This document shows, in pieces, positions 942 to 28,700 of a stretch of DNA of 64,000 bases. Both the position numbers and the translations under genes were made by a program. Within the stretch, counting starts at the first letter, position 1. Every line of letters starts with the position of its first letter. This DNA comes from a virus (Duplodnaviria > Caudoviricetes). The DNA lies in IMG/VR virus record IMGVR_UViG_2903109678_000002, positions 10,656 through 74,655 of that record; one strand, written 5' to 3'. The notes beneath the pieces were generated by a model. It searched no databases. It was not told where the DNA came from and saw nothing but the letters and a program-made list of their open reading frames with translations.

Positions 942-995
942 AAGTTCTCCTGTCAGCAGGACACAGCCCAACACCGGCTATGGCTGCGCGCGGGC

Positions 996-6826: not shown

Positions 6827-6870
6827 AGAAGTATCCTGCGGTCAGGGCCGAAAAAGCAGGCGAGTAAGAT

Positions 6871-7305: not shown

Positions 7306-7745
7306 GCAAATACCCCGCTTCGCCCGTCTGCGACATCCATGAATCCCTCTTCGGTTAGCACGATGTCGGAACCCTGAATTTTGTAGGAAACCTGTAACCG
7401 CAGCACGTTGAAACCCGACTGGCCGGTGCGCAGCACGCTGACATCCTCAAACAGCGCCTCAACGTTGAGGAGTGCGACCCTGGGTTCATAATGGGTAATA
7501 CTCTCCCGTACCAGCGTGGTGATCCGTTGGAGCAAATCCGCATTGACGTTAGCAAAAACCACTTCATGCAGGTCACAGCCGTAACCGGCGTGCATCACCC
7601 GTTCCAGCGGTAAGGTATTAAACAGAATGCGCAGGCTCTGCTGGATATCTTCTACGTAGTTGGCAGCCAGTGCTGCGCCACTGTTAAGGGAGAAACGTGG
7701 CGGGAAGGCCCAGCCACGCCCGTGGATCTCGTCTAATGTTGGCAT
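7302..7745 (-). CDS. Afp9-like gp25/GPW baseplate protein
   Basis: GRGWAFPPRF...DIQQSLRILFNTLPLERVM..YGCDL...YEPRV. Confidence 0.92.
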   Translation of the reverse strand: MPTLDEIHGRGWAFPPRFSLNSGAALAANYVEDIQQSLRILFNTLPLERVMHAGYGCDLHEVVFANVNADLLQRITTLVRESITHYEPRVALLNVEALFEDVSVLRTGQSGFNVLRLQVSYKIQGSDIVLTEEGFMDVADGRSGVFA

Positions 7746-7763
7746 TCTTCACCTTCCCGTTTA

Positions 7764-9404: not shown

Positions 9405-9421
9405 CGCGTTTCTCCCGCAGA

Positions 9422-10156: not shown

Positions 10157-10332
10157 CTGAACCTCCAGGCTTCATCACGTATTTTTGCCATCACCTGGCT
10201 CATGACCTGGCGCGAAATACGATTGACCAGGTCCGCTTCGGTAACCGGAGAGAGAGAGGCTGCCGGTGGCTGATCGTTGATATCATCAGTGACGCGTGCT
10301 TCGATGATCAGTTCACGAATTTCAATCGTCAT
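10153..10332 (-). CDS. Afp6-like small protein
   Basis: MTIEIRELIIEARV N-terminus typical of Afp6/Pvc6; start moved to ATG at 10332. Confidence 0.8.
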   Translation of the reverse strand: MTIEIRELIIEARVTDDINDQPPAASLSPVTEADLVNRISRQVMSQVMAKIRDEAWRFR

Positions 10333-10793
10333 AGTTTGACTCCCAGCCATTCAATGCTGCGACAGGTAAACTCAAAGCTGTTGATCAGCGGCTGGCCCGA
10401 ATCGGCATCCAGCGCCCCGTATTGCATGCGCACCGGGAGTGCATCACTCGCCATCCAGATTGACTGCGGCTTGCCAGACTCCCCCAGCAGCATGATGGTA
10501 ATGTCGAAATAGGTGACCGAGGTCAGGAACTCGCTCAGGATCAACTGCACTCCCACGCTCATCGGTGTGGGGATCATCACCCCCCGATCAAACACCAGGT
10601 TTGAAGTGGTCGAGCGCTGCGGGAGTACCCGGTTGCTGGCGTTATGCCCGCCTTCGTGAATCGATCGGGTCTGTAGCTGGTAGCCGAGCCCCGTGATACT
10701 GGCAAACTTAAAGCTTAACGGGTCTGGTACTAAGCCCAGCAAGACAAAAGAGGCGAGAAAACGGTGATTCAGTTCAGGCTGATAGATGCTCAC
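10329..10793 (-). CDS. Afp5-like tail tube protein (T4 gp19 family)
   Basis: HRFLASF...FASITGLG...EGGHN...LVFDRG...DADSG; probable GTG start at 10793. Confidence 0.85.
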   Translation of the reverse strand: MSIYQPELNHRFLASFVLLGLVPDPLSFKFASITGLGYQLQTRSIHEGGHNASNRVLPQRSTTSNLVFDRGVMIPTPMSVGVQLILSEFLTSVTYFDITIMLLGESGKPQSIWMASDALPVRMQYGALDADSGQPLINSFEFTCRSIEWLGVKL

Positions 10794-10794
10794 G

Positions 10795-11991
10795 TTATCC
10801 TCCCGTGGCCGCGACATGCTCGGCAGTCAGATAGAAGTCGAGATTAATATGGATAAATTCGGCCGGTCTTTGGGTCGCCACCGCCACCCTGACGCGCAGC
10901 AAACCACTGGCGATTTCACTGGCTGACATGGTTTCATCCAGACCGACACTGATTTTATAGGCATCATCTTCTACGCCCCCGGCCAGCCCCCCTTGTTCCC
11001 ACAGCCTTTTAAGCTGTTGGCGCACCACGGCATGCAGCCGGTACCAGGTGATTTCATTGTTAGGTTCAAAGACATAAGGGCGCATAGCCTCTTTCAGCGT
11101 CTGTTTAATCCACTTGACCAACCGCTGATTTTGCAGATAGACAAAGCGCAGGTCAGGTTGATTACTCAACGTGCGGCAACCCCAAATTTTAACGCCGCGA
11201 CCGGGGAAACTGCGGATCTGATTCACCGAGCGGCCGCTGCGCGGATCAGGATGGAACAACGTGACGGGTGTGAGATGGTCATACTGGGGTTTGAGCACCC
11301 GCTCCAGCCGCAGGTTAGCGGGGGCGTACCAGATACCCCGCTGCTTATCAGACTGTTGCATTTTGGCCGCCACGGCCGCACCCGGAGGCACGGCCCGCAG
11401 CGCGCGCGTGGGAAAGGCCGGATCTTCGCTGACCATCACCCACGGCCAGTATCCCGCAAGGTGTGCCCAGTGTTCATTGCCCCATTTTGCGTTGTATTTT
11501 TCTGCGTCAGCAGGCGCACTCGGATAGTCAATTAAACCCGTCAGGTTCAGGCTCGAGGCGCAGCAGATGGCCAGTTGATTAACCACACTTTCCCACTGGT
11601 TCTCATCTAGCAGCGGGAGTTCTGGCAGCACCACCAGCGTAATGGTGGGCTCGTCTGCCAGCAGGGCAAAGGCTTCATCGTAGCCCGTAACAGAGGGGAC
11701 ATCGTCGATCAGTGTGCCGAGAGAAATCACATAGCACTGGCCGCCACCATGACTGAAGTAGAGGCGCATAGCGTCGGCGAGATAGCCACCGTTGCGCACA
11801 GCATCACGGCCAAACTGGTCATAATAGTCTTGCAGCGAAGTGACCTGTACCCGCTCAAGTACCGATGCTTCAGGATGGTCGGCATAACCAATAAACACCG
11901 GCAGCGCGGTGAGTTTTTCCCGCTGGCTGATGTTGATGATCTGTTGATGAAAAGAGACGCCGGGCTGACTGAAATCACTGTTCAAAGACAT
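10795..11991 (-). CDS. Tail sheath paralogue 5 (Afp4-like)
   Basis: RGIWYAPAN, NQIRSFPGRGVKIWGCRTL, VFEPNNEITW, RPAEFI. Confidence 0.92.
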   Translation of the reverse strand: MSLNSDFSQPGVSFHQQIINISQREKLTALPVFIGYADHPEASVLERVQVTSLQDYYDQFGRDAVRNGGYLADAMRLYFSHGGGQCYVISLGTLIDDVPSVTGYDEAFALLADEPTITLVVLPELPLLDENQWESVVNQLAICCASSLNLTGLIDYPSAPADAEKYNAKWGNEHWAHLAGYWPWVMVSEDPAFPTRALRAVPPGAAVAAKMQQSDKQRGIWYAPANLRLERVLKPQYDHLTPVTLFHPDPRSGRSVNQIRSFPGRGVKIWGCRTLSNQPDLRFVYLQNQRLVKWIKQTLKEAMRPYVFEPNNEITWYRLHAVVRQQLKRLWEQGGLAGGVEDDAYKISVGLDETMSASEIASGLLRVRVAVATQRPAEFIHINLDFYLTAEHVAATGG

Positions 11992-12056
11992 GGCTTAACC
12001 TCTTTACGTCTATTTTACGGAAGGTGGCAGGAGACGTGCCAACGCGTGGACGGCAC

Positions 12057-13331
12057 CTAAGCGGCCATAAGATCCTGCGAGAAGTCGAGCCAGAGAAACT
12101 CCACCGGACGCAGCGCCGCCAGCCCGATGCGGATGCGCAAAATGCCAAGGCTTAACTCACTGGACGTCAGCGCCAGTTCAACCTGGAAAGCCTGCTGTGG
12201 CGTTTCCCCATACAGCCCTCCCTGCTGCCACAGACGGTGCAGATACTGATTGATTGCTGCCCGCGCCGACTGCCAGGTGCCTGCTGAGTTGGGTTGATAC
12301 ACCACCGGCAGCAGCAGGTTACGGACATCGCGCTCAACGGTGTTAAACAGCAGCCGCACCGGGATGTAGCGCCAACTGCTGTCGCTACTGGTCGCCAGCG
12401 TGCGAGCGCCCATCACCGTCGTGCCACCTTGTTCCTGCCAGAGAATGGCATTAACGCCCCGTTCGTTGAGATCACCATGCTGAGCGTTACCAATGGCACG
12501 CTGCGGGTCAACGCCTTCCAGCGCAAGATTGGCGCTGGCCTGCCACACGCCCAGTTGGCGCTCGGTGCGACAGTAAAGCCCGGCAACAGGTGCACAGGGT
12601 GAGAGCGTGAAGGTGTTCAGGTGCTGGTAATCCACGGTGACGAGATTGAGCCACTGCTTGACCTTGCGATAGGTTTCCCGCTGTTTAGCCGTCCCCTGCG
12701 CCAGCGAGCTGAGGCTGCATGCAAGGTCACGGAGCCAGATATCCGACGCCTGAATACTGAGCGGTTGACGCGGCACCAGATCCGGCGTGTAGCAGGCACT
12801 CTGTGCCTGTTCGCCGTAACGCGGTGGATTCCCACTGCCAACCACATAGCGCAGCAGCAAAAACGACTGTGGTAGCCGTGAAGTTAAGCCACCAAGCTGC
12901 GTCAGAATAGCCTCATCATCATGGCCCACATCAATCAGCGCCATCAGCGAGATATCATCCCGCTGCGCGAGGATTTCGCTGAGGCGCGCAATCTCATCAC
13001 CCTGCGCCAGCGACAGGATGTAACAAGGGCCACCGCCGTTTTCGAAGTAGCTGCGCAAGGCAAATGCTGCGCTGTGAACGGCACTGCGTTCTGGCTGTAG
13101 GCTGTCTGGCAGTGAGTCGGTCTCGACTTCCACCCACACTTGCGCCCCCTGCAACAGCTGGCAGTAGTGCTGCCAGTTTTCAATCCACACCGGGCCATAG
13201 CTAAGGCTTAGTGGCGTGTTGTCCTGCTGACGAAAACGCCCCACCAGCAATGGCACCAGCTTGCTCATGCCGGGACTGGCCAGTGCCAGCCGGTTGTTCT
13301 CTTTAATAAATACGCCGGGATAATTGCTCAT
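12057..13331 (-). CDS. Tail sheath paralogue 4
   Basis: YPGVFIKE, YFENGGGPCYI, GVWQASAN, WRYIPVRLLF, RPVEFL. Confidence 0.9.
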   Translation of the reverse strand: MSNYPGVFIKENNRLALASPGMSKLVPLLVGRFRQQDNTPLSLSYGPVWIENWQHYCQLLQGAQVWVEVETDSLPDSLQPERSAVHSAAFALRSYFENGGGPCYILSLAQGDEIARLSEILAQRDDISLMALIDVGHDDEAILTQLGGLTSRLPQSFLLLRYVVGSGNPPRYGEQAQSACYTPDLVPRQPLSIQASDIWLRDLACSLSSLAQGTAKQRETYRKVKQWLNLVTVDYQHLNTFTLSPCAPVAGLYCRTERQLGVWQASANLALEGVDPQRAIGNAQHGDLNERGVNAILWQEQGGTTVMGARTLATSSDSSWRYIPVRLLFNTVERDVRNLLLPVVYQPNSAGTWQSARAAINQYLHRLWQQGGLYGETPQQAFQVELALTSSELSLGILRIRIGLAALRPVEFLWLDFSQDLMAA

Positions 13332-13402
13332 CCTCTTCTCCTGGGAATCCATCGGGCCGCAGGGCGGCTGACGGCGAAGGGTTCAGGTGGTTAGGTATAG
13401 AT

Positions 13403-14800
13403 TCAGGCGAGAACCTGTAGCTGTTGGGTAAATTCCAGTTCGATAAATTCTGCGGGCCTGAGCGGCGCCAGGGCGACACGAATGCGCATTACCCCTTGTG
13501 CCTCGTCATCCTCATCCAGCGCAACCTGCACCTGGAAGGCCTGCTCCGGGGTCAGCCCTTGTAATCCACCCCGTTTCCACAGCAGGTAGAGGTATTGGCG
13601 GATGCCCGCCGTGGCCGCTTGCCAGCTGCGTGCGCCGTTGGGTTCGAACACCTGCGGTTGGATTATCGCCTGTAGATCTCGCTGCACCGCGTTAAACAGC
13701 AGGCGTACCGAGACGAAGCGCCCGTTGAGGTCTTGCGTGTCTGCGGTGCGCGCCCCGGCGATCACCGTGCCAGTGCGAGGCGACCACAGCAGCGGGTTAA
13801 AGCCTGCCTGAGTGAGCTCCGCCTGCTGCGACAGAGTGAGATTATGGGTCGGCGCGGGGCCAGCGAGTTGAATGTTGGCCGGTGCTTTCCAGATGCCGCG
13901 TTCGCGTTCAGTTTTGCAGAAAACACCGGCGACACCACCGGAAGGGGCCAGGGTAATAGCCCGTAGAATGCTGTCATCGAACTGGTCAGTGTTACGCCTG
14001 GCGGTGACATTGGCATATTGCTCTCTTTGCCTTTCATCATCGCTGACTTTAAGTTGTGCAAGGGTTTTACCGGTGCCCGCGAGCAGGGTGCTCTCTTCTT
14101 CCAGTTCACCGCCCGGCGAAGAAAACTTCAGTGCAGGTGTGTAAGTTGCAACCTGGCGGTTATCCGGCAGCGGTTGCGGAGGTACAGCGCCAGGGTACGG
14201 CTGATGGGTAATCAGCATGGCTTGTGGGTTAATTTCCTGCAACAGCGGAAAGGCAGTTTGCATGGCCACTTTGGCCTGGTCATCCAGGGCTACGTACAGG
14301 GTAATGTCATTATATTCTTGCAAAGAACCCGCGATTTTTCCCCCTTGCTGCTCGCTTTCGCAGTGCATGACATAGCAAGGGCTGCCACCATTATCAAAAT
14401 AACATTTGACCCCAGCAGCACCCGTAGCGATGTCTGATGATTTAAGCACCACAATGTGATTATTTTCAGGTACTGGCACTGCACCGAATGTCACATCGTC
14501 TTCCATTGCGGAGAGGGATGTTTGCAGCGGCGATTCATCGCCTTGTTTTCTGTCTCCCCCCTTTTCAACAATCGGTTCTCCCCAACCATTCGCTAAAACA
14601 ACGGTACGGGCATAAGGCGCGAATCTGGCCAGAAAAGCCTGATAACTGTCAATCCACAGCGGTGCATTAACATGCTCGTCAGGATCGCCGCTGCAGCTCA
14701 GAAAACACCCCAACAACAGCGGCACATGGCCACTCGCGGCTGCCGCTCCCCGGCTGGGTGAATCCACTTCAGTAATACGCACACCAGGAATGTTACTCAT
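13403..14800 (-). CDS. Tail sheath paralogue 3
   Basis: IPGVRITE, YFDNGGSPCY, RGIWKAPAN, VFEPN, RPAEFIELEF. Confidence 0.9.
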   Translation of the reverse strand: MSNIPGVRITEVDSPSRGAAAASGHVPLLLGCFLSCSGDPDEHVNAPLWIDSYQAFLARFAPYARTVVLANGWGEPIVEKGGDRKQGDESPLQTSLSAMEDDVTFGAVPVPENNHIVVLKSSDIATGAAGVKCYFDNGGSPCYVMHCESEQQGGKIAGSLQEYNDITLYVALDDQAKVAMQTAFPLLQEINPQAMLITHQPYPGAVPPQPLPDNRQVATYTPALKFSSPGGELEEESTLLAGTGKTLAQLKVSDDERQREQYANVTARRNTDQFDDSILRAITLAPSGGVAGVFCKTERERGIWKAPANIQLAGPAPTHNLTLSQQAELTQAGFNPLLWSPRTGTVIAGARTADTQDLNGRFVSVRLLFNAVQRDLQAIIQPQVFEPNGARSWQAATAGIRQYLYLLWKRGGLQGLTPEQAFQVQVALDEDDEAQGVMRIRVALAPLRPAEFIELEFTQQLQVLA

Positions 14801-14946
14801 AACAGCTCCTCATCATGATGGCGTATCACCCACCGTAACCGGACGGTGCGATTAGCCACGGGCAAAATAAGTGTGATACGGCGAGAAAAGGGAAAAAGGG
14901 GCGGTGAAGCATGAGCAGCCAGTGAACACCGCCCAAAACAGCGTGA

Positions 14947-16350
14947 TTACGCGGCGGCTAACAGTTCCTGAGTAAACTCCAGGTCGATAAACTCCACCGG
15001 GCGCAACGCAGCAAGGCTGACGCGTACGCGCAGGATGCCGTTGTCGATATCCCCGTCTTGCAGCGCAATCTGCACCCGATAGGCCTCTTCTGGCGAGTTG
15101 CCAAACAGCCCACCGCGTTTCCAGATACCGTGCAGATAGTTACTGATACCCGCCACTACCGCTTGCCAGGTAGGTGCTGAGTTCGGCTGGAAGATAATCG
15201 GTGCCAGCATTGCGCTGACATCACGTTCCACGGTGTTAAATAACAGGCGTACCGGGACGTAGCGCCAGTTAGTAATGTTGGGATCTGCGGAGGTGCGCGC
15301 CCCCATGATTGAAGTGCCCTTCTGCGGCGACCACAAAATGGCATTGACCCCAGCCTCGTTCAAAACACCGTGTTCCTGGGCACTAATAGTGTGTACTGGC
15401 GTTACCCCCACCAGAGAAACGTTCGCAGGTGCTTTCCACACCCCACGGTTGCGCTCGCTGGTGCAATACGCGCCCGCCACAGCGGCAACTGGCGAGAGAG
15501 TTAGCGAACTCACCGCTGAGAAATCCAGTGGCGCGAGTGCCAGATTGTCTTTTACCGTTTTGTAAACGGCTTTATCTCGCTGAGCGGAAAGCAGCGCATT
15601 ACCCAGGAAAATACCGTTTTCATTCACCACGTTGAAATTACTCTCCAGCTTCAGCTCTGGGGTGTAACTGGCAGAAAATTCATTTTTAGGCATGACCGGG
15701 CCGGCTGGTGGCGTACTGCCGGTAAACGCTGCATGGGCAATAAACAGGGATTGTGGATTATGCTCTTGAATCGCGGCAATACTGCCTTTAACCAGCTCTT
15801 GCGCACTGGCATTCAAAGGCACATACAACGAGACTTCATCCAACTCTGCCGTGGCTTTTTCTAAATCGTCTTTTGCATCAGAAGCGCTTAAAGCGAGGAG
15901 ATAGCAAGCGCCGCCCCCGTTCGAAAAATAGCTGGCCACTGCTGCCGAGGAATTGTCATACAAATATGAACTGCTGATTTTTGTTGGCTGGCCGCTGGTA
16001 AAAGGTACCTCCGTGGCCGCAGCCACGCTATCAGCCTCTTTTGTCGCTTTTTTACTTTTTTTAGCTTCTACGCCTCCTGCCTCTTCGCCGCTTTCTTCAT
16101 CACCGCCTTCCGGAAGGGGGGCCGCCTGGCCCCATGCCGGCGCCAGTTTAATAATCAGCGGGGCCGCAACGAATTTTTCAGCAAACTCCGCATAGTTAGC
16201 CACATAGACTGCGCCATCTGCCGCATTGGCTTGCGTTCCGTCCTTTTTCCAAAAGGCTCCCACCAAAAGCGGCACCAGGCCGCTCATGCCCGCAGCACCC
16301 ACCGAAGGGGTACTGCTTTCAATAATTTTCACTCCAGGATTTCTACTCAT
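14947..16350 (-). CDS. Tail sheath paralogue 2 (Afp3-like)
   Basis: NPGVKIIE, YFSNGGGACY, RGVWKAPAN, WRYVPVRLLF, RPVEFI. Confidence 0.92.
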   Translation of the reverse strand: MSRNPGVKIIESSTPSVGAAGMSGLVPLLVGAFWKKDGTQANAADGAVYVANYAEFAEKFVAAPLIIKLAPAWGQAAPLPEGGDEESGEEAGGVEAKKSKKATKEADSVAAATEVPFTSGQPTKISSSYLYDNSSAAVASYFSNGGGACYLLALSASDAKDDLEKATAELDEVSLYVPLNASAQELVKGSIAAIQEHNPQSLFIAHAAFTGSTPPAGPVMPKNEFSASYTPELKLESNFNVVNENGIFLGNALLSAQRDKAVYKTVKDNLALAPLDFSAVSSLTLSPVAAVAGAYCTSERNRGVWKAPANVSLVGVTPVHTISAQEHGVLNEAGVNAILWSPQKGTSIMGARTSADPNITNWRYVPVRLLFNTVERDVSAMLAPIIFQPNSAPTWQAVVAGISNYLHGIWKRGGLFGNSPEEAYRVQIALQDGDIDNGILRVRVSLAALRPVEFIDLEFTQELLAAA

Positions 16351-16377
16351 GATCGATCCTCATGAAAAGGCGCGTGA

Positions 16378-17646
16378 TCACGCGCCACTGGCAACTTGTT
16401 GGCTAAACTCCAGCACGATAAATTCCGCCGGGCGCACCACCGCAATACCGATACGCGCTTTGAGGATTCCGTTATCAATGTCGGCCTGAGTCATGGTGAC
16501 TCCCAGTCCCACCTGAATAAAGAAGGCCTCTTCCGGCGTATTCCCCTGTAACGCGCCTTTTTTCCACAGGTTGTAGAGGTAGTTCTCTACGGCGGCACGC
16601 ACCGCCTCCCAGGTTGCCTGGCCGTTGGGCTCAAACAGCACCGATTCCAGCGCCCGGCCAATATCGCGTTCTGCCATATCAAAGGTACGGCGCACCGGGA
16701 CATATCCCCAGGCATTGCCGCCAGTGGTCAGCGTGCGAGCGCCCCATAGCAGCAGACCACGCCCTTTGAATTCGCGCAGAATATTGACGGATTTGGTGGT
16801 GTGGTTTCCGCTGGTAAACAGGGCTTGCGTGGCTGACCCCACTTTAACCAGTGGGCTTAAACCCGAAGAGACAGCAGCATTTGCCGGTGCTTTCCATGGG
16901 CCTACGCTATTGTCAGTGCGACAGATGATGCCCGCTGCGACAGCACTCGGCGCAACATTAGCAATCTCGGTCACCCCCGGAATGCTCCAGTTGGCTTTCA
17001 GCCATGGATAATAAACTGCAGCATGCTCTGTGGCCTGGATACCGCCGAGCGCAGTTTCAAGCTCACCTTTAACATCCCCTTTTGACTCCTCCGGCCCGTC
17101 CAGTAGAGCAAAACGCCCACTGCCTTCCGCGGTGTACTTCAGGATGTCAGATGTTACTGTGCTCTGACCCGCCTGCACCACCAGGGTGACATCGGGCAAT
17201 TTGTCCAGCCATTCGAGCTTATCTCTGGGCAGCAGATAGCAATAACCGCCACCATTATCAAAATACGCTTTAAGGGCGGGTAAAGTGTGTCGATCCCAGT
17301 CCGGCACATCTGCCGTTTTGGTATTCACACCCATGGCATCGGCAAGACGAGGATGATGCGCCGGCCCGCCACGAGAAAGGCGTGAAAGCAGACTAACAAC
17401 GGCACGCGGCGAGTAGTAGGCCACGCTTTCCGATTTACTCCCGCTGGCGGAGAAATAACTGAGTACATCCGCAAACGAATTGATCAAAGCGGGTTTTTCG
17501 CCCAACGCCTTCCACCAATCCAAAGAGCCCGAATTGCCGTCCAGAATCACCGGTACTGCTGTCGCCGAGCTGCTGATGCTGAATGAGGGCAAATCCACCT
17601 CATCCACATACACGCCCGGCGCTTTTGGTAAAGTAAATACAGCCAT
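16378..17646 (-). CDS. Tail sheath paralogue 1 (Afp2-like)
   Basis: APGVYVDE, YFDNGGGYCY, WKAPAN, WGARTL, QVGLGVTMTQADI, RPAEFIVLEFSQ. Confidence 0.93.
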   Translation of the reverse strand: MAVFTLPKAPGVYVDEVDLPSFSISSSATAVPVILDGNSGSLDWWKALGEKPALINSFADVLSYFSASGSKSESVAYYSPRAVVSLLSRLSRGGPAHHPRLADAMGVNTKTADVPDWDRHTLPALKAYFDNGGGYCYLLPRDKLEWLDKLPDVTLVVQAGQSTVTSDILKYTAEGSGRFALLDGPEESKGDVKGELETALGGIQATEHAAVYYPWLKANWSIPGVTEIANVAPSAVAAGIICRTDNSVGPWKAPANAAVSSGLSPLVKVGSATQALFTSGNHTTKSVNILREFKGRGLLLWGARTLTTGGNAWGYVPVRRTFDMAERDIGRALESVLFEPNGQATWEAVRAAVENYLYNLWKKGALQGNTPEEAFFIQVGLGVTMTQADIDNGILKARIGIAVVRPAEFIVLEFSQQVASGA

Positions 17647-17673
17647 ATAACCTCCAGAAGGTTAAGCAGTACA

Positions 17674-18129
17674 TTACAGGGCGTGGCATTCCACGGTCAG
17701 ACGATCGGCATTCAGGGTGATCTGCTTCGCCGCCACTTCATTGCTGGAAGCTTCGAGGCTTGGCCCGGTAATTCCGGTTGGGAAGCAGTTGAATACGTTC
17801 CAGGTGACATAGAGCTTTTTGCCCGATTCATCCGTCAGACTGATGGCGATATCTTTTTTGCCATCTGCGTGGTTGGCATAGTTATACAGCCACTCATACA
17901 GCTTGCACTCACCTGGGAAGATCGCCTGAGAAAGGGTGATAGAAGGTAACTGAACGCGCGTGATGTTGCGGAACAGGCCGCCCATACCATCGCGGTATTC
18001 ATAACTTTCATACTGCTGGTCGAGGCCGCTTACTGAACTACAGCGGATCACATCACCGTCAATGGTTACAGTGAAGCGAAAACCGGGAACCGGATAACTT
18101 GCATCAATGATATCAGTGGTATCTGCCAT
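17674..18129 (-). CDS. Afp1/Pvc1-like major tail tube protein
   Basis: YPVPGFRFTVTI...SVSGLD...YRDGMG...KKDIAISLTDE...VTWNV.NCFPT..GPSLEASSNEVA. Confidence 0.93.
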   Translation of the reverse strand: MADTTDIIDASYPVPGFRFTVTIDGDVIRCSSVSGLDQQYESYEYRDGMGGLFRNITRVQLPSITLSQAIFPGECKLYEWLYNYANHADGKKDIAISLTDESGKKLYVTWNVFNCFPTGITGPSLEASSNEVAAKQITLNADRLTVECHAL

Positions 18130-18203
18130 GGTTATTTCTCACTTTGCAGGTTTGAACGTATCCGCTGCCCGCAGGCAGTCAGGATGGATGAACAACATTG
18201 ATT

Positions 18204-19580
18204 TCAGGAGGTCCCGGTGGCTGACCTCAGAGGAACTAATTGCGTCAGGTTATTGTTAGAAGCGAATCTGGAATCTTGTGCGATCACAGAATCGGGGTGA
18301 ATCCCTGGTAGTGGCGCCATCACGCCGAGCACCTGCTCAACGCTAATAAACTTCGAGCAGGAAAACTGTTCACTGGTGCCCTTGTGACGTGGACACCAGA
18401 AAAAATCCTTTCGATCAAATTGATAGCGAGTGTCATTCCAGCAGCTATTGCAGACGTGGGTGTTAGTCACCCGATAGGGCGTGGCGAACTCGGTCGCTGG
18501 ATTGCTAAATCCGCTGATCATCACCACCGGTGTGCCTGCGGTCCAGGCCAGCCAGGAGAGCCCGCTACTGAGGCCGACAAAAAATTCCGCGTGCATCAAC
18601 CACCGCAGACGCTCGCTCAAGGGGCGATTGCCGGTTTCGTCTTCAGCGCCATGGGGAATGTGATTCCAGGTCAGATCGCGTCCTACTGTGGTCTCTTTGT
18701 CGATGCAGATCACCCGATAACCGCGTTCTTTAAGCTCCCGCACCAGTTGTATCCAGCCAACGGGATTGTTCCAGAATTTACACTGCGAGGTAGACTGAAC
18801 GCCGATACAGACGTAAGGCTCCGCAATGGGGCGACGGTTTTCAGCCAGCCTGAACTGTGCGGGGTTTTCATCTGGGGCAAGGCCAAGAATGGCGCTGGCG
18901 ATATGGTGTAGTGGCGTTTGTTGACCGTCAACCGGGCAGTATTCCCCCTGCGTATCCCCTATACCTGCATTCAGGAAGTAGGTGGCGTAATAGGTGGTTT
19001 CATCCGGTTCATACGGATCAATAAAGCGAATTTGCGGATAGCTGCTGGCAAAAACATCGTGGAAGCGTGCCGAGACACGGACCGTGAGACGGCACTGATG
19101 GCGTACCTGAAAACGCATCACTGAGGGCAGCCAGGCGAGGGTATCCCCCAGGGTATCTTCGGGGATTTGTATCAGCACCGGTTGCTGATACAAATCCATG
19201 ACGTGCAACATGACAATCTCATTGTCTTTCTGCACCTGAAAGGCAAACGGCACGTAATACTTGTGTTTACTCTCAACCATCCCTCCTGACACCGCAGTAT
19301 CACCAAACACGTGATAGTTCTGGATATCCACTACGCGTACGCGCCAGTTGCCTTCGGGTAGGTGAATGCGACAACCATGATTAAAGTCAAACAAAATGCC
19401 TGTGCCCTCTGCCCCCTGCTGGGTCGGCAGCTCGGGAACGGGGGCATAAGGCGACTTTTTAAAATCAGAATCAGAAGCCACGGCGTACGACGACTCTGGT
19501 ACAGAATCTTCTACGTGTTCGGGTTGTGGACGACTTTCAGGCGATGGAAATGCAGCGTTATTAGGCGTAAAAAAACTCAT
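18204..19580 (-). CDS. TibC/Aah-family (BAHT) protein O-heptosyltransferase
   Basis: GILFDFNHGCRI, SKHKYYVPF, TLGDTLAW (catalytic Asp context), QSTSQCKFWNNP, FFVGLSSGLSWLAW, iron-finger cysteines CNSCWND...WCPRH...FSC. Confidence 0.92.
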   Translation of the reverse strand: MSFFTPNNAAFPSPESRPQPEHVEDSVPESSYAVASDSDFKKSPYAPVPELPTQQGAEGTGILFDFNHGCRIHLPEGNWRVRVVDIQNYHVFGDTAVSGGMVESKHKYYVPFAFQVQKDNEIVMLHVMDLYQQPVLIQIPEDTLGDTLAWLPSVMRFQVRHQCRLTVRVSARFHDVFASSYPQIRFIDPYEPDETTYYATYFLNAGIGDTQGEYCPVDGQQTPLHHIASAILGLAPDENPAQFRLAENRRPIAEPYVCIGVQSTSQCKFWNNPVGWIQLVRELKERGYRVICIDKETTVGRDLTWNHIPHGAEDETGNRPLSERLRWLMHAEFFVGLSSGLSWLAWTAGTPVVMISGFSNPATEFATPYRVTNTHVCNSCWNDTRYQFDRKDFFWCPRHKGTSEQFSCSKFISVEQVLGVMAPLPGIHPDSVIAQDSRFASNNNLTQLVPLRSATGTS

Positions 19581-20930: not shown

Positions 20931-21159
20931 GGGTTTCAGTTTAAGTACCTAGACTGGATGAGTATCACTTTCGACTCAAAAAAATGCACCCGGTGGTTCA
21001 TTCTCTTCTATAGTTAACTCAGCTGTAGGTGTTGCTTATCCCCTTGGTGATGTTTCATGTTACTGCCCGGCTGTCTCCGGGCATTTTTTTTCGAAAAATC
21101 ACATCCCGGCTGTTCAAAAAAAACTAGTCGTGCCTAGGCACGCAACCGAGGTATTACTA

Positions 21160-21336
21160 ATGACTACAAGACGTGGTGGAAAAGGCAATTTTGCTGAGGA
21201 TACTGATAGAGCAAGAGAGGCTGGCAGGAAAGGTGGCGCTATGAGTAGCGGTAACTTTAAAAATGATCCTGCACGCGCAGCAGAAGCAGGCCGCAAGGGT
21301 GGAAAAAAGAAGAAACCAGAGCCTACATCAGACTAG
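21160..21336 (+). CDS. KGG-repeat general stress protein (YciG/YmdF/Con-10 family)
   Basis: RGGKGNFAEDTDRAREAGRKGG..SSGNFKNDPARAAEAGRKGG; GAGG RBS before ATG at 21160. Confidence 0.9.
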   Translation: MTTRRGGKGNFAEDTDRAREAGRKGGAMSSGNFKNDPARAAEAGRKGGKKKKPEPTSD

Positions 21337-21380: not shown

Positions 21381-21596
21381 CTAATTGTTGGCAATCTTAC
21401 ATGCTTTACGCATGATTTTTGCGGCGTCTAAGGTAAATGCTTTCACCTGCAAATCTTTCGATTCAGCGGCCATCCTTTCAAGTTCATAGAGAATATTTTC
21501 ATTGTTGACATGTACGCCTCTACCAGCAAGCTTTAAGACTGCTGACCCTATAGCACGCCCAATCATTTTCGTACGATATGCTCGAACTTCCTTCAT
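21381..21596 (-). CDS. Small hypothetical protein (possibly Ymg/DUF2767-like)
   Basis: 71 aa, amphipathic helices, IGRAIGSAVLKL...VNNENIL; converges on the KGG gene across a GCCCGG/CCGGGC hairpin. Confidence 0.55.
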   Translation of the reverse strand: MKEVRAYRTKMIGRAIGSAVLKLAGRGVHVNNENILYELERMAAESKDLQVKAFTLDAAKIMRKACKIANN

Positions 21597-22292: not shown

Positions 22293-22312
22293 TACTGTAT
22301 ATATAAACAGTA
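22293..22312. promoter_or_regulatory. LexA (SOS) box
   Basis: TACTGTATATATAAACAGTA, near-perfect CTG-N10-CAG. Confidence 0.9.
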
Positions 22313-22390
22313 TAATCACGACAAGGCAAAAGCGGCAACTGATCATTTACCTATCAATCGCCGCCTCTGAAGTGCTCTTGATGCTGTTGG

Positions 22391-24400
22391 TTAGATTTCT
22401 GGTTGGTCGTTTAGGTCGGTGTCAGTAGATGCTGGTTCAGATGGTAATTCATCTGATTGCTGTGAAGTTTGTTCCGCTGCGGCCTGCGCTTCAGCAAGCG
22501 CTTCTGCTTCGGCTGCTGCAATTGCTGCTTGCTCTGCTTCCTCCTGCGCTTTCTGTTGAGCCGCAAGGTATTCACGCAGTTCAACAGTGGCCTGAGCCGC
22601 TTTCTGATTGAAAACAGAATCGCCAGGCATCGCAACACGCACATCAATCCATCGACCGTCCGGGACATCAACGGGATCGCCTGCAACAATCATAGCGCTA
22701 TCAACATCAAATTTGCGCTTCGCCACGTTGAGGATCACTACTCCTTCCTGGTACGAAAGTGACGCATAGCAAAGCCTGTTACCATTTTCATCCTGCGGGA
22801 TTTCCAGCGTCCAGCCATCAGGATAGAGACCCGCAGTACCGGCAATGTGGTAAAGCCCTACATCCACACACTCGACGGTAACGCCTTCGGCCTCATCATT
22901 CACAGCAGCATAATCGGTCTGGGTGAAGTTACCTTCAGTAAAGCCTGCTGGCATTTTGCTGACATTGCTTGTCACGCGCACAATAGGGGAGGCTTTCTTG
23001 ATGAACCCATTACCATCAACCGTGGTGTTCTTTTGTGACCAAATCACATAGGAGTTAGCACCATTACTCCAGCCGCCAATTTTTAGCTGGTTGTCAGCAT
23101 CAATACCAAACAGCGTTGCATATGCCCCGTCGCGGATGAATACCATTGCTGCGGAAGCGCTGCTGTTAGCGCCATTAGAAACTCGGAAGCCGGGAGCATT
23201 CGTACCATTAGTCACATTTGCCATCGGGGGGGTAATGTTACTCGCAAAAGTCAGTGCAGCTATTGTGTTATTAGAGTTGACCTGACTCCCTGCAACAATA
23301 GGAGCGCCAGCTACTGGATCCGCACCAGATGGATTAACATTTAAGGTTGCTGCGTTCCCAAGGCCTAACCCGGTTCTTGCGGTTGCCTGGGTGGTGCCAC
23401 CAGTGCCACCGTTGGCTATTGGTACAGTGGTTTTAGTTGAGAGAAGTTCAACCCATGCAACGAATGTTCCTCCAGAGCATAATCTTATAAACTTTCGGTT
23501 ACCAGTAGCCGCAGATGCTGTATCAGTATGATATTCTTGAATGAAGCTTGTTTTACTTCCAATACTGCGTCTCTTAACCTCTAGAACTCCAGAACTTGTT
23601 ATCGGTAAGTCTGTTACTGCATCAGATAAGAAATATCTACCAGGTAAATTTATATCATTTGCACTGCCGCTGATTACCTGAGTGTAAACTGTTCCAGCTC
23701 CGGCAGGTATCCATTCAGACCATGATGGAGTTGTTGCCGACCAGTTTGCAGATAGAGTTCTGGTATATATATTTCCATATCTTGTGGTATATCTCTGCGC
23801 ACAGCTAAAAGCTCCACCAATAAATACTTCCAAGACACCAGAAACCGGTTCAGGCAAATTAAGTAAATTATATTGAGCGGCTGAACTGAAATTCCAAATC
23901 CCAGAGTATCCAGCTTGCTGAGACATCATATTAACGTCAGTAACTTCACTGCCTGTAGTGCCCCTCTGAAGTATGGCACCACTCAAAGCTGCCATATCTG
24001 AAGTCAGCTTAGCGAAGCTACTGATGGTCACGTTGGTTCCATCCGGTGCAGTCAAAGTAATGCTTCCGCTGCCGGTCATTATCTGTTGCCAGCCATCCAT
24101 CTGAGTCTGGTAGTAGCTCAGCTGTGCGGCCAGACGGCGAGCAAAATCTGGCACAGAATCGGTGTAGAATGACATGATCGAGTAAGCTTGCCCCGCTGCG
24201 AGCGTACCCGGTGAAGTCATCAGCGTGATTTTAGTCGCGCTGTCCACACTCTTAATTTCATACATCTTAACCGTACCGGAGCCTGGGATAAGAAGCGCCT
24301 GACCGGGGCCAATAGCAAATTTATTATCCAGCCAGTTGGTGCCTGTTCCGGTTACGGTCGTGCCTGATACGGCGATTGTTCCGGTGTTATACCATGCCAT
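22391..24400 (-). CDS. Side tail fibre protein
   Basis: MAWYNTGTIAVSGTTVTGTGTNW N-terminus, knob-like repeats, ARTGLGLGNAAT, C-terminal NTTVDGNGFIKKASPI...GRWIDVRV module. Confidence 0.88.
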   Translation of the reverse strand: MAWYNTGTIAVSGTTVTGTGTNWLDNKFAIGPGQALLIPGSGTVKMYEIKSVDSATKITLMTSPGTLAAGQAYSIMSFYTDSVPDFARRLAAQLSYYQTQMDGWQQIMTGSGSITLTAPDGTNVTISSFAKLTSDMAALSGAILQRGTTGSEVTDVNMMSQQAGYSGIWNFSSAAQYNLLNLPEPVSGVLEVFIGGAFSCAQRYTTRYGNIYTRTLSANWSATTPSWSEWIPAGAGTVYTQVISGSANDINLPGRYFLSDAVTDLPITSSGVLEVKRRSIGSKTSFIQEYHTDTASAATGNRKFIRLCSGGTFVAWVELLSTKTTVPIANGGTGGTTQATARTGLGLGNAATLNVNPSGADPVAGAPIVAGSQVNSNNTIAALTFASNITPPMANVTNGTNAPGFRVSNGANSSASAAMVFIRDGAYATLFGIDADNQLKIGGWSNGANSYVIWSQKNTTVDGNGFIKKASPIVRVTSNVSKMPAGFTEGNFTQTDYAAVNDEAEGVTVECVDVGLYHIAGTAGLYPDGWTLEIPQDENGNRLCYASLSYQEGVVILNVAKRKFDVDSAMIVAGDPVDVPDGRWIDVRVAMPGDSVFNQKAAQATVELREYLAAQQKAQEEAEQAAIAAAEAEALAEAQAAAEQTSQQSDELPSEPASTDTDLNDQPEI

Positions 24401-24418
24401 TTACTTTTCTCCGGGCAA

Positions 24419-24441
24419 TAAAAAACCCGCCGTAGCGGGTC
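24419..24441 (-). terminator. Intrinsic terminator after the TonB-C gene
   Basis: ACCCGC-TACG-GCGGGT followed by a T-tract on the minus strand. Confidence 0.8.
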
Positions 24442-24453
24442 TCTGTTTATTCG

Positions 24454-24750
24454 TTAGCTTCTTTCGAAACTGATTTTAATCCTGATATCTTTCTCCGGAC
24501 GTCCTTTAGGGAATCGCCATTTATAAATCTGGTCCCTTACCGCATCGTCAAAAAGATATGCTGGTGTACTGCTTATAACCCTGACGTTCTCAGCCTTTCC
24601 GGTATCACCAATGTCATACATGACATCAACGCTGCCTGACTGACCTAGATACCACGCTCTTTCTGGATAGCTAACCTTGTTTTCATTTGCACCAGCAGAT
24701 GAGAAAGAAAGCATTAAAAAAACCAGAAATAATTTTGGTAAGTTATTCAT
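24454..24750 (-). CDS. Secreted stand-alone TonB C-terminal domain protein (moron)
   Basis: AGGAGG RBS; Sec-type signal MNNLPKLFLVFLMLSFSSAGA; then YPERA..LGQSGSVDVMYDI..TGKAENVRVISSTP..LFDDAV..QIYKWRF...ISF (TonB_C signature); no proline-rich linker. Confidence 0.85.
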   Translation of the reverse strand: MNNLPKLFLVFLMLSFSSAGANENKVSYPERAWYLGQSGSVDVMYDIGDTGKAENVRVISSTPAYLFDDAVRDQIYKWRFPKGRPEKDIRIKISFERS

Positions 24751-24846
24751 GACGCCTCCTGTGTTATTCACACAATGAGAACACAGATTCACTTACTCAT
24801 GATTGAATTTATTCGATCTTAATGATCGAGTTTGCTTATTATTAAA

Positions 24847-25521
24847 TTAGTAACCTAATGATTGAATGTAATACTGATCATAGATGGCGGTTCTAATAGC
24901 AATTATCCCTCGACTCTGGTCAGGGTAAACTAGCCCTCCTGTATTAAGACCATCCCACCACGTTCCTTGTGATACACCTGTTGGACTACCTGCCCATGAG
25001 AGAAGAATAAACTGCTGGCTCCCACCGCTACCTGGCACACCCGGCCCAGCGACAGCAGAGTGAAACCCCGGCATAACTGCCATTGGCACACCCTGCGTGT
25101 TCGCTCCTGTCGTCCATGGTACATACTCGCAGGTGAGCGGAAGGCAATTCCCCGCATAGACCATAACCCCACCACGCCAAAAAGACAGGCCAAATGGGGG
25201 GTTATAAGCCACGTAGCCACCGAAGATATAGAACCTGACTGCAAATGCATTTCCGCCATTACCTTGCGCGTAATCAATCTTGAGCTGCTTATACCCATTA
25301 GCGCCAGCAACAATCTGCATCATCATTCCACCAGTGGTGCTGATATAGCGCCAGAAGACAGATGAACTTTGAAAGTTAGGTACGGTGGTTTGAATATAAA
25401 TCGTCGACTTGACGCTGCCGGGTATTGTGTAGTCAATTACTTGTACAAGATTAAACGGTGTAAAATCAGGAGAAGCAAAAAATTTACCATCACTTCTCCT
25501 TATCGTCATACCATAAGCCAT
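24847..25521 (-). CDS. Tail-tip accessory protein downstream of gpJ
   Basis: MAYGMTI.. beta-rich 224 aa; position as in N15/HK022/T1-type tails. Confidence 0.65.
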   Translation of the reverse strand: MAYGMTIRRSDGKFFASPDFTPFNLVQVIDYTIPGSVKSTIYIQTTVPNFQSSSVFWRYISTTGGMMMQIVAGANGYKQLKIDYAQGNGGNAFAVRFYIFGGYVAYNPPFGLSFWRGGVMVYAGNCLPLTCEYVPWTTGANTQGVPMAVMPGFHSAVAGPGVPGSGGSQQFILLSWAGSPTGVSQGTWWDGLNTGGLVYPDQSRGIIAIRTAIYDQYYIQSLGY

Positions 25522-25523
25522 GC

Positions 25524-25790
25524 TTACCCCGCCCAGACAATGATTTTATAAGCCGTAGATGTCCCCGACCATGAAACAGTTGTGCCACTCACCGTTATGG
25601 TTGGCTCTTTTGTTCCCGAATAGGTTGGGGTATCCATGAAAGCCTGAGCAGTCAACGCCGTACCGGGTGGAACATTATACGACCTTGAACCACTTGCTAT
25701 ATTCTCAATGATATCCATCACATAAGAAGGTGACATTGAATTAACGACATCAAAAGACGTGCCTTTGATATAGAGAAAAGCGCCAAACAT
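25524..25790 (-). CDS. Small tail-tip accessory protein
   Basis: 88 aa, overlaps gpJ stop, PTITVSGTTVSW motif. Confidence 0.65.
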   Translation of the reverse strand: MFGAFLYIKGTSFDVVNSMSPSYVMDIIENIASGSRSYNVPPGTALTAQAFMDTPTYSGTKEPTITVSGTTVSWSGTSTAYKIIVWAG

Positions 25791-28700
25791 TATTGTTGCC
25801 CCAGAATAAACACAACGTTGCCGCTTGCGTCATAGCCAACTAAACGGTTATTTGACCAGGTCATTCTCCCCTGCCCTGCCACATAGCCATTGTTTTCAAA
25901 TACACCTGTTTTGAAATTAATAGACAATCCTGTCATACCGGAAACAAAGTTATCTGACTGGAGCGTATCCGTTATTTTACCCCTGCCGATTGTTGCATCG
26001 CCGATAAAAGCAGTGTCCATAATGGCCTGCCCGTTTTGCAGGGCGAAGAAGGCTTTTGGTGTGGTGCCAACCTGCGACATGATCACGAACCGGTCCGCCA
26101 GGAATGCCACTGTAGATTGCATCCCGTTAGGGCCGTTCTCCATGCCAATCCCCATACCTGCCGCATAAAGCACGCCGTTCTGGTCAACCTGCACCTTTAC
26201 GTTGTACTGCGCTGATACCTTGCCATCTACCGCGCTAATAGCTGAGGCGTTTTGCTGAATAGACGCGGTGAAGGTGTTGAGCTGCGCTGTAGTCGTCTGC
26301 TGGAACTGAGCAAAAGCCTGACTTGAATCAGACTGAGCCTGTTCCAGCGTGGACACACGGGCGCTGTTGTTATCGAACTGAACGGTAATCTCGCGCTGGT
26401 ATGAAGCAAACGCCTGATTCGCATCAGCCTGAGCCTTCTCAGCTTGCGTCACCCGCGCACGAATTACACCTGCTGCTGCACGCTGATTTTGTGCATCCTT
26501 ATCATTTGCGAGAGCGTTCTCAATGTCCGCCATCGCCGAAGCATCAAAGTATGCCTCAGTGCTTTGCGTCAGCGTTGCCAGAGCCTGATCGGTCGTGGTC
26601 TGCGCTGTCTGCAACAAACCGATAGACGCAGTATTCCCATCCGTGCTGGTTTTAACGCTATCGATACGCGTACCCAGCGCGGTATCGGCATTAGCTCGGG
26701 CCGTCTGCTCAGTGGTGATCGCAGTGGCGTTGCTCGCAACAGACGCATCCAGGCTGTTTAAGCGGGTTGTAGTTGCTGACTGGTTATCAGTGACCGCTTT
26801 CTCTACCGTGGTCAGGCGTGACGTGTTGTTATCCGTCGTCGCTTTAACATCAGTGATCCGCTGCCCCAGCGCTGTATCTGCATTTGCCCGCGCCGTCTGC
26901 TCAGTAGTGATCGCTGTGGCGTTGCTACCAGCAGATGCCTCTACCGTGTCTATGCGTTTGCCTAACGCCGTATCGGCGTTTGCTCTGGCTGTCTGTTCAG
27001 TAGTGATCGCCGAAGTGTTAGAGCTAGTCGAAGCAGATACAGTATCAATGCGTTTGCCCAAAGCGGTATCGCCATCTGCACGTGCAGTCTGTTCAGTAGC
27101 AATAGCCGATGCATTGTTACCAACAGAGGCGTCCAGGCTATCCAACCGCTTCACAGTCGCCGACTGGTTATCGGTGACAGCTTTTTCCACAGTCGTTAGC
27201 CTGGCCGTGTTGCTGTCTGTGGTAGTTTTCACATCGGTAATTCGCTGACCAAGTGCTGTATCTGCATTTGCCCGAGCCGTCTGCTCAGTGGTGATCGCAG
27301 TGGCGTTCGCGCCAGTCGATGCCGTTACAGTGTCGATACGCTTAGCCAGGGCTGAATCAGCATCCGTCCGCGCCGTGATTTCAGTATTGATGCTTGCGGC
27401 ATTAGAATCGGTCTTTGCTGACACTGCCATGACCATTTCGGTCAGGCCTTGATCAGCATCAGCCCGTGCTTTTGCTTCTGAAACGATACTGGCAGCATTA
27501 CCAGCAGCCGTGGCTGTCACTGCATCAACCCTTGATGACAGCGCATCATCAGCGCTGGCACGCGCCCCCTGCTCTGACAGAACCTGCGCACTAACATCAG
27601 CAATGTCACTGCCAGTGCTATCGAAACGAGCCTCAACACTCTGGCGATAAACTGCAAACGCCTCCCGATCATCAGCCTGAGCCTGCTCGCTTTGCGTGAT
27701 ACGCGCTGAGAGCTTGCCGGATGTTTCCCGCTGCTGCTGCGCGTTCTTATCCGTGCTGAGCGCATTTTCGATATCTGCCGCCGCGCCAGCATCAAACTTA
27801 GCGCTGGTGACGCGGGAAAACTCTGCCAGAGAGTTATCCGTTGTCGTTTGCGCGTTTTGCAGGGCGGTGATCGCCGCGCTGTTATTGCCGGTTTGGGTTG
27901 TGATGGTGTCAATTCGAGTGCCTAACGCACTGTCTGCATTCGCTCTGGCTGTCTGCTCGGTGGCTATTGCGGTAGCGTTTCCATCAGATTTAGCCACAAC
28001 TGCATCCAGTCGGGTCGACATGGATTGATCATTAGCCTGTAACGTCTCGACTTGCGAAACCACCGTGGCGATACTCTGGCTGCTACCTCCAGTGATGGTA
28101 TTGATCTTTTGCTGAATATCATTGTTGACGTTGGTTACGCGTGTATTCACGTCACTGATGTTATTGTTGATGCCAGTAAGGGAGGTGTTAACCTGCTCCC
28201 TCGCCAGATCAAGATCATCACGGGCTGCTTTGATATCCGTTTTGTTCTGTTGGATGTCAATTTTCGCGCTAGATAAATCATCACGTGCAGCTTTGATATC
28301 AGTCTTATTCTGCTGGATATCGGTTTTCGCAGTAGATAAATCATCACGCGCTGATTTGATATCTGCCTGAGCCTGATCAACCGCAGAATCCAGGCCGCTA
28401 ACATCAGATTCAACAGAGGTGATGCGCTCAACCAGCGCTTTACCGGTTTCCGAGTTCATCACCGCTTCAGTGATATCGTTTAGCAACGCGCCAGTATCTG
28501 TACTGGTCACACCCTGAACCCATCCAGTCCAGTCACCGGCATTACCAATACGGTCAACCAGTCGTGCGCGATACCAGCGGCGCACACCAGCAGCCATTGG
28601 CCCGTGTTGATAGCTGGTCGAAGGATACGCAACCGAAACAAGAAGCTGTGGGTTTTGCCCGTCTGCCGTTGTCGCTTGCTGAATCTCCGTTGTAGAGGTG

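Follow-up and report, generated by a model that had tools for sequence, protein, structure and literature searches.

Does a small protein encoded between the tail-tip and tail-fiber genes of a prophage act on the receptor that the phage itself recognizes? The question is raised by a stretch of 64,000 nucleotides (nt) of the IMG/VR virus record IMGVR_UViG_2903109678_000002 (Caudoviricetes; positions 10,656 to 74,655 of the record), hereafter the window. Its interval 24419-24846 consists of three parts, all on the minus strand: a coding sequence, a 5' region, and a terminator. An earlier note on this DNA had read the product of the coding sequence, P0001, as a signal peptide followed by a TonB C-terminal (TonB_C) domain and had proposed that it is a TonB decoy that excludes superinfecting phages. 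On balance, judging by its sequence, its structural model, and the analogy with known exclusion proteins, we favor the reading that P0001 would be an exported mimic of TonB by which a TonB-dependent receptor is uncoupled or jammed, so that superinfecting phages are excluded.

P0001 was compared with profiles of the TonB family. It matched Pfam TonB_C (PF03544; E 2.1e-13, 50.9 bits against a cut-off of 24.6, residues 26-93) and TIGR01352 tonB_Cterm (44.5 bits against a cut-off of 27.1). The best score with the five NCBIfam TonB equivalogs (NF008080-84) was 60.2 bits, below the cut-off of 265, and the matches to these equivalogs were confined to the C-terminal ~70 profile positions. The signal-anchor helix and the proline-rich periplasmic spacer of TonB were absent from the P0001 sequence, in which only 27 residues, with a short hydrophobic core and no proline-rich run, precede the YP motif. 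Because it lacks anchor and spacer, P0001 would be unable to pass on energy or to couple to ExbBD. The predicted signal peptide is of the Sec type by its form, with a short hydrophobic core and A-G-A at positions -3 to -1 (cleavage between AGA and N); no cysteine was found in the first 30 residues of P0001, hence no lipobox. The credible start is the ATG at 24750, which GGAGG precedes by 6 nt. The GTG at 24792, the start of the longest open reading frame (ORF; 112 amino acids, aa), was rejected, as it has no ribosome-binding site. The earlier description of a 98-aa product made only of a signal peptide (AGA) and a TonB_C domain, without anchor or proline-rich linker, was thus borne out by Pfam, TIGR01352, and the form of the sequence.

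The structure of P0001 was predicted with AlphaFold2 (AF2) from an alignment of 27 short relatives. The predicted local distance difference test score (pLDDT) was 89.5, and the order of elements was alpha-beta-beta-alpha-beta (H30-35, E39-47, E52-62, H68-76, E86-95). In Foldseek, the model was superposed on 7zc8, 2gsk_B, 1u07, and 2grx_C with a root mean square deviation of 1.0-1.5 Å over 72-76 residues. These matches are FusB and TonB C-terminal domains, among them TonB with BtuB (2gsk_B) and TonB with FhuA (2grx_C), whereas TolA domains matched far worse. The comparison of profile and structure with TonB_C, which the earlier note had suggested as a check, therefore agreed with its domain assignment. 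A profile of the short family aligned with enterobacterial TonB chains, 2gsk_B and 2grx_C among them, at E ~1e-24 without internal gaps, and residues were mapped by hand from ungapped alignments (TonB residue n corresponds to P0001 residue n-135; TonB numbering was checked on chain 1xx3_A, with 144 residues, the last being 239). By this mapping, mature P0001 corresponds to TonB 157-233, and TonB residues Y163, F180, G186, F202, W213, Y215, and F230 correspond to P0001 Y28, Y45, G51, F67, W78, F80, and F95. All seven are kept or still aromatic in P0001. A passage of PMC3005593 describes these seven TonB residues as functionally important and states that TonB 158-171 and 225-232 touch the TonB box of BtuB; the equivalents of both contact segments lie within mature P0001. 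By sequence and model, mature P0001 is a complete TonB C-terminal domain.

These features would also suit a general TonB decoy, which would fill the TonB box of every transporter or poison TonB itself and so protect the cell broadly against TonB-dependent phages, group B colicins, and sideromycins, whichever receptor the phage itself uses. P0001 is closest to housekeeping enterobacterial TonB, and residues for recognizing several transporters are kept. The earlier note had relied on the dominant-negative effect of periplasmic TonB fragments; this is backed indirectly by a passage of PMC9841981, which, citing Howard et al. 2001, reports that iron import through TonB is inhibited in E. coli when the periplasmic domain of TonB is overexpressed, an inhibition that extends to several transporters.

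The gene order of the window was compared with that of phage N15. In the window, the order is J, an 88-aa gene, a 224-aa gene, a 96-nt gap, the TonB_C gene, the terminator, the fiber gene, a 103-aa gene, and a UmuD-like gene. The order in N15 is gene 21 (J), gene 22 (100 aa), gene 23 (225 aa), a 111-nt gap, gene 24 (Cor), a stem-loop, gene 25 (fiber), and gene 26 (UmuD-like). In Yersinia phage P400, which is otherwise collinear, J, a 90-aa gene, and a 215-aa gene directly abut the tail protein, and the slot is empty. The comparison strongly supports that the P0001 gene occupies precisely the place of cor in a tail module of the N15 type, as the earlier note had proposed from the order after gpJ and two small genes. 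The GC content was 0.36-0.40 over 24450-24900, compared with 0.51-0.56 on both flanks. The hairpin of the terminator, which ends in U6, had a minimum free energy of -16.6 kcal/mol (z -2.8), and an equally good fold was found in 0 of 200 shuffles. The AT-rich composition, the strong ribosome-binding site (GGAGG), and the gene's own terminator were therefore present as the earlier note had described them. Because of its low GC content, its own terminator, and its absence from P400 and from 25 of the 50 modules surveyed below, the P0001 gene looks like an inserted accessory cassette of the moron kind.

Further features were observed around the gene. A predicted leader hairpin (~24757-24782, minus strand) pairs with the GGAGG Shine-Dalgarno sequence of the P0001 gene and may control its translation. 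A Fur box upstream of P0001 was rejected: the best site agreed with the consensus at 12 of 19 positions, and since 106 window positions score at least 12, the match was put down to chance. The junction of the terminator and the fiber start (24396-24441) was 93-100% identical over 33-45 nt to vB_SosS_Oslo (a Salmonella phage), Midgardsormr38 (an Erwinia phage), and a fecal phage contig, and a megablast search of 22300-26000 against phages gave nothing else in these 3.7 kilobases (kb). This junction may be a shared module boundary.

We surveyed the contents of the slot in related genomes. A scan of 401 genomes of the family with a profile of the fiber N-terminus gave 149 places in 105 genomes, and 2.6 kb upstream were fetched for 140 of them; the window's own place, seven weak or stop-containing places, and one 295-nt stub were left out, and 11 of the surveyed stretches end early at contig ends. 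A g23-like gene was present upstream in 50 of the 140 fiber loci. Among these 50, the slot was empty (less than 150 nt from g23 to fiber) in 25 and held cor in 18. In two (L047 and L048), it was occupied by a forward gene for a 95-aa TonB_C protein with a signal peptide, which Pfam confirmed, and in three (L105, L127, and L141) by a reverse-strand TonB_C-like lipoprotein gene of 111-117 aa. The remaining two held an IS1-like insertion and an unknown 85-aa ORF; the former (L095, G022:C1) carries InsA/InsB ORFs, named from their translations, at ~1840-2540 between g23 and fiber. Neither cor nor TonB_C was found in the 90 loci without g23. An IMG/VR contig (L215) supplied a fourth forward TonB_C case after the window, L047, and L048; its J was 75.5% identical to that of the window over 826 aa, and its g22, g23, and TonB_C were 36%, 31%, and 50% identical. 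These results indicate that cor and TonB_C-type genes alternate at the slot, together with an empty state, an alternation for which the earlier note had proposed to look (18 cor, 2 forward TonB_C, and 25 empty of 50).

The same results bear on whether P0001 belongs to the virion or takes part in the assembly of the tail tip. The gene does lie between tail-tip genes and the tail-fiber gene. However, half of the related modules, and also P400, lack it, and Cor, which fills the same slot, is a non-virion protein by the annotations of N15 and other phage records. P0001 also carries a Sec-type signal peptide, and since it would be exported by Sec, it would not be part of the virion. We regard a role in the virion as highly improbable.

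The three reverse-strand slot genes belong to phrog_25729, whose proteins were found in 44 phage records. Against our own TonB_C profile, the L105, L127, and L141 lipoproteins gave E 1e-5 to 1e-6 and were listed apart as TonB_C-like; hhalign of the three against the short TonB_C family gave a probability of 96.4% (E 1.2e-9) over 87 columns, part of which are signal peptide. An AF2 model of phrog_25729 from eight sequences had a core pLDDT of 85-92 and the order alpha-beta-beta-alpha-beta. By sequence and model, phrog_25729 proteins are probably remote TonB_C relatives. In IsaakIselin, the signal peptide of this protein has no lipobox, and its gene shares an operon with g22 and g23.

Furthermore, the slot gene was compared with its neighbors in the receptor-binding cassette. 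According to a passage of PMC8594841, the small genes at receptor-binding loci downstream of gpJ have alleles that match the receptor and move horizontally. The g23 proteins were clustered with 45% as the minimum identity. The 19 cor cases, N15 being one of them, all fell in clusters that otherwise had only empty or "other" slots. One cluster contained both forward TonB_C cases (L047 and L048), two reverse lipoprotein cases (L127 and L141), and three empty modules; the g23 proteins of L048 and L141 were 76% identical. A sister cluster contained HK639, L105, one empty module, and IsaakIselin. No g23 cluster mixed cor with a TonB_C-type gene. Clustering of J C-termini at 40% identity lumped nearly all of them, and the informative features were the terminal motif and the g23 clusters. 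By hand count, 16 of 17 cor-bearing J proteins ended in the N15-like ...RVQ.G..TGVF and 5 of 6 TonB_C-type J proteins in ...GLW, while cor accompanied none of 11 J tails of the ...GLW/...GLF type and TonB_C-type genes none of 22 N15-type tails (also hand counts). The g23 alleles linked to TonB_C were 36-49% identical to that of IsaakIselin. Passages in the literature state that IsaakIselin targets YncD (PMC8594841) and that YncD is PqqU, the TonB-dependent transporter of pyrroloquinoline quinone (PMC11658791). In these descriptive counts, the slot gene co-varies with the receptor-binding cassette.

This co-variation, and the absence of a g23 cluster common to TonB_C-type genes and cor, weigh against a decoy acting on every TonB box. 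The host genome encodes 26 Plug-domain transporters, and uncoupling all of them would be costly to the lysogen. The identity within the family, only 33-54%, is as expected for partner-specific co-evolution and not for mimicry of one conserved TonB. A receptor-matched blocker therefore fits the co-variation and the exclusion of cor from these g23 clusters better than a general decoy does, and both the way in which the gene varies together with g22 and g23 and the burden that a loss of 26 transporters would place on the lysogen favor an action biased toward one receptor. We consider a general decoy unlikely. Of the decoy interpretation in the earlier note, the architecture and the slot were retained, and the alternation with cor and the cassette look agreed with it; the decoy of all TonB boxes is held less likely, in view of the co-variation with the receptor cassette, the separation of the g23 clusters from those of cor, and the lack of a convincing promoter.

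The cor slot, the alternation with cor, and the tracking of the receptor cassette together make P0001 most simply the receptor-blocking partner of that cassette. The following course of events is proposed. In this N15-like siphovirus prophage, the gene would form an accessory cassette within the region for host recognition, in the slot that Cor holds in relatives. P0001 would be exported by Sec and cleaved after AGA. The mature domain would dock on a TonB-dependent transporter of the outer membrane, at its periplasmic face or its TonB box; this transporter is probably the one recognized by the phage's own receptor-binding cassette. Once docked, the domain would prevent the real TonB from reaching the transporter or would fix the transporter in a state through which phages cannot enter. 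This would exclude those phages of the same receptor type that depend on an energized receptor, and colicins and siderophore antibiotics that use the receptor might be blocked as a side effect. A precedent is described in a passage of PMC9586334, in which Llp of phage T5 binds and jams a TonB-dependent transporter from the periplasm; for Cor, a like action is proposed there by inference.

Several observations weigh against P0001 as a receptor-directed exclusion protein of the lysogen. The forward TonB_C type is rare, with 2 cases among the 50 modules from 400 other genomes. The association of the slot gene with g23 and J could reflect linkage and shared descent, as the genes are adjacent and the genomes related. 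The g23 of the window is an outlier, at most 33% identical to any other, and does not point to a receptor. The earlier prediction that this phage uses a TonB-dependent receptor has indirect support from other prophages, in which TonB_C-type slot genes go with g23 alleles of 36-49% identity to the IsaakIselin allele. A free decoy acting on all 26 host transporters would cost the lysogen iron and B12 uptake. For the reverse-strand type, no Pfam TonB_C match was obtained with the L105, L127, and L141 lipoproteins, and the top 11 PDB matches of the phrog_25729 model, all TonB or FusB domains, were weak (best E 2e-2; template modeling score 0.5-0.6). The remaining points concern expression. No sigma-70-like promoter was found in 24751-24846 by a standard consensus scan, and the best site in a looser scan matched at 8 of 12 positions, which is not convincing. 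The gene runs in the direction of the late tail genes, and the TonB_C gene of L048 lies 11 nt behind g23 and 21 nt before the fiber gene, so that expression in the late operon, and possibly expression only late in lytic growth, must be considered.

The points on expression could also be read as lytic timing, as in T5 Llp: P0001 would be made with the late tail genes and would inactivate the receptor on the infected or lysing cell, preventing superinfection and loss of progeny on debris, and no lysogenic conversion would be involved. In addition to the orientation, the want of a clear promoter, and the tight packing of the L048 copy, the related gene of the lytic phage IsaakIselin shares an operon with g22 and g23, and the virulent phage T1 also carries Cor. 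By contrast, a stem-loop follows cor at the same place in N15, the low GC content and the terminator of the P0001 gene give it the look of a moron, and three related slot genes run opposite to the late operon, which speaks for independent expression. Cor of N15 and phi80 gives lysogenic conversion. A purely lytic role appears unlikely to us.

We also searched for relatives of P0001. A word-index homologue search gave no match besides P0001 itself, and an exhaustive search gave 667 proteins at E 1e-3 or lower. About 30 of the best 150 of these were 90-120 aa in length and aligned end to end with 33-54% identity. By a crude regular expression, 12 of 32 short relatives had a lipobox, 14 had a signal like those of signal peptidase I, and 6 were unclear or truncated. 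None of the 12 lipobox relatives had Asp at position +2, and 11 of the 12 had a tether of 8-16 residues. By the E. coli +2 rule, the lipidated relatives would be placed at the inner face of the outer membrane. Because short relatives with a lipobox or a peptidase I-like signal were found, exported TonB-domain-only proteins are, as judged from sequence, a family and not a single case. Relatives of P0001 occurred in 15 of 50,697 phage records with 31-39% identity (14 E. coli lambdoid phages and one Klebsiella phage). Three records were inspected, those of phage 21, PhiR47_2, and Klebsiella phi12.4. In all three, the gene lay in the accessory region from lysis or bor to cos, and both of the two genes translated from them encoded lipoproteins; the other matches were near-identical E. 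coli lambdoid phages. None of the 15 matching records, three inspected and the rest near-identical lambdoid, had a P0001-like gene in a cor slot.

The family of the phage 21 TonB_C lipoprotein (P0159) is held by phrog_1267 (E 5e-43), which is labeled "Rz-like spanin". This label, and the occurrence of TonB_C-like folds in many non-TonB proteins (multi-domain matches and the AgmX/PglI model), could suggest that the fold of P0001 is used outside TonB-dependent transporters, on another envelope protein, on peptidoglycan, or as a lysis accessory. However, the phage 21 record annotates separate spanins, and the prophage in the window has its own endolysin, Rz, and Rz1 genes at 48166-49248 (Rz and Rz1 at 48166-48712); for these reasons the label of phrog_1267, which is that of a TonB_C lipoprotein family, is almost certainly, or at least probably, a positional mis-annotation. 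P0001 has no transmembrane helix with coiled coil, its model consists of the TonB_C fold only, and its best matches in sequence and structure are true TonB domains and not TolA or others. Such an unrelated use is very unlikely. PADLOC gave no match for P0001, P0152, P0159, or Cor, and since Cor itself is absent from the PADLOC library, this result is uninformative. No literature on the function of phage or prophage TonB-like or TonB C-terminal proteins, nor a paper on the function of the phage-21-type TonB_C lipoprotein, was found in a coverage that leaves out most subscription journals.

Two further loci touch this family. In phage 21, the TonB_C lipoprotein gene (locus L001, 3896-4222) adjoins bor. 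The genome that carries the prophage of the window also has a second gene for an exported TonB_C-only protein (G000:C11, ~269.6 kb; L007 1402-1740, L271). Situated at the end of a different prophage, it encodes a 112-aa lipoprotein (lipobox LISGC, Pfam E 4.7e-12), and its neighbors, as read from ORF translations only, are gtrABC-like genes, a UmuD-like paralogue (72% identical), and myovirus-type tail genes.

The coordinates of the features are given in Table 1. In gpJ, positions 26400-28400 contain a long run of repeat units of the form ...AITTEQTARANADTALG.RID.V..., and the J protein of L215 (1064 aa) lacks most of this run. At the end of the prophage, a KGG-repeat stress protein is encoded at 21130-21336 (plus strand) and a 71-aa phrog_3975 protein at 21381-21596 (minus strand); the latter gene has a paralogue beside the gene of the 112-aa TonB_C lipoprotein. 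A contractile injection locus of the PVC/Afp kind occupies 1-19580 of the window.

Table 1. Positions of the P0001 gene and its parts, of the neighboring tail genes, of other genes in the window, and of the reverse-strand slot genes (locus coordinates)
Feature	Position	Strand	Basis or remark
Gene of P0001, predicted exported TonB C-terminal domain, 98 aa plus stop	24454-24750	minus	Pfam, TIGR01352, AF2, Foldseek
Predicted signal peptide of P0001	residues 1-21		MNNLPKLFLVFLMLSFSSAGA, then mature N-terminus NENKVSYPERA...
Mature P0001 domain	residues 22-98		77 aa
AT-rich 5' intergenic region with GGAGG ribosome-binding site	24751-24846 (96 nt)	minus	
Intrinsic terminator, GC stem and U6	24421-24445	minus	Between P0001 gene and tail-fiber gene
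gpJ-like central tail fiber/tail tip, 1722 aa	25790-30958	minus	phrog_31, phrog_2589
g22-like, 88 aa	25524-25790	minus	phrog_557
g23-like, 224 aa	24847-25521	minus	phrog_425; part of putative receptor-binding locus downstream of gpJ
Side tail fiber, 669 aa	22391-24400	minus	N-terminus aligns with N15 gp25; flanks slot on other side
UmuD-like, 106 aa	21711-22031	minus	phrog_3469, E 1.5e-24; counterpart of N15 gene 26
T4 gp19-like tube	17674-18129		
Two sheath genes	16378-17646, 14947-16350		
TibC-like heptosyltransferase	18204-19580		After contractile genes
phrog_25729 slot gene, L105	2125-2478	minus	
phrog_25729 slot gene, L127	264-599	plus	
phrog_25729 slot gene, L141	265-600	plus	
phrog_25729 slot genes, HK639 and IsaakIselin			Loci L188 and L187

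Receptor-blocking exclusion proteins decide which phages co-infect a lysogen and affect phage therapy and the sensitivity to colicins and sideromycins. Those known for TonB-dependent receptors, Cor and Llp, are small lipoproteins of unrelated fold, so a TonB-domain mimic would be a third solution, by mimicry of the host energy transducer. It would supply a natural inhibitor of the contact between TonB and its transporters, which a passage of PMC9841981 describes as a pursued antibiotic target, and would mark, at the level of sequence, phages whose receptor is TonB-dependent. A wider idea, which we put forward only tentatively and hold to be doubtful, is that phages have repeatedly turned the TonB docking domain into receptor blockers, namely the forward cor-slot genes, phrog_25729, and the phage-21-type lipoproteins near bor, each tuned to the receptor of the phage's own binding cassette. 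If this were true, the type of the slot gene would predict the receptor class directly from sequence.

P0001 was finally compared with known systems. Cor (N15 gene 24, phi80, the HK series, ES18, and T1; 245 phage records) resembles it in being small, exported, and matched to the receptor cassette, and in occupying the same slot in the order J, g22, g23, slot, terminator, fiber. The two differ in sequence, since BLASTP with N15 Cor gave no alignment with P0001 at E 100 or better; P0001 lacks a lipobox, and the one Pfam match of Cor, to a lipoprotein signal, stayed below the threshold. Llp of T5, as described in a passage of PMC9586334, is likewise a phage periplasmic protein that acts on a TonB-dependent transporter, and its gene adjoins the receptor-binding gene. 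However, Llp is a lipoprotein of unrelated fold that binds a non-native state of the plug and not the TonB box, whereas P0001 would be a soluble copy of the TonB domain with the TonB box as its expected contact. TonB of the ExbB-ExbD-TonB system has the C-terminal domain in common with P0001, and the anchor and the proline-rich spacer are found in TonB only. Engineered periplasmic TonB fragments, in the account given in a passage of PMC9841981, are exported and without an anchor, as P0001 would be, but they are overexpressed laboratory constructs of the host's own TonB, while P0001 is natural, diverged, and phage-borne. The phage-21-type TonB_C lipoprotein (phrog_1267; CPT_21_73; "tonB-like" of CP-933N and Stx1a phages) is also a predicted exported protein with TonB_C only and is 37% identical to P0001 over 71 aa; unlike P0001, it is a lipoprotein (LAVGC) encoded in the lysis or bor-to-cos region and not in the cor slot. 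The phrog_25729 proteins (HK639, IsaakIselin, L105, L127, and L141) share with the forward TonB_C genes the slot, the predicted export, and the same or related g23 alleles; they differ from P0001 in giving no Pfam TonB_C match and, in prophages, in lying on the opposite strand, and they are mostly lipoproteins. From its sequence and these analogies, P0001 is a plausible addition to the receptor-directed exclusion proteins.

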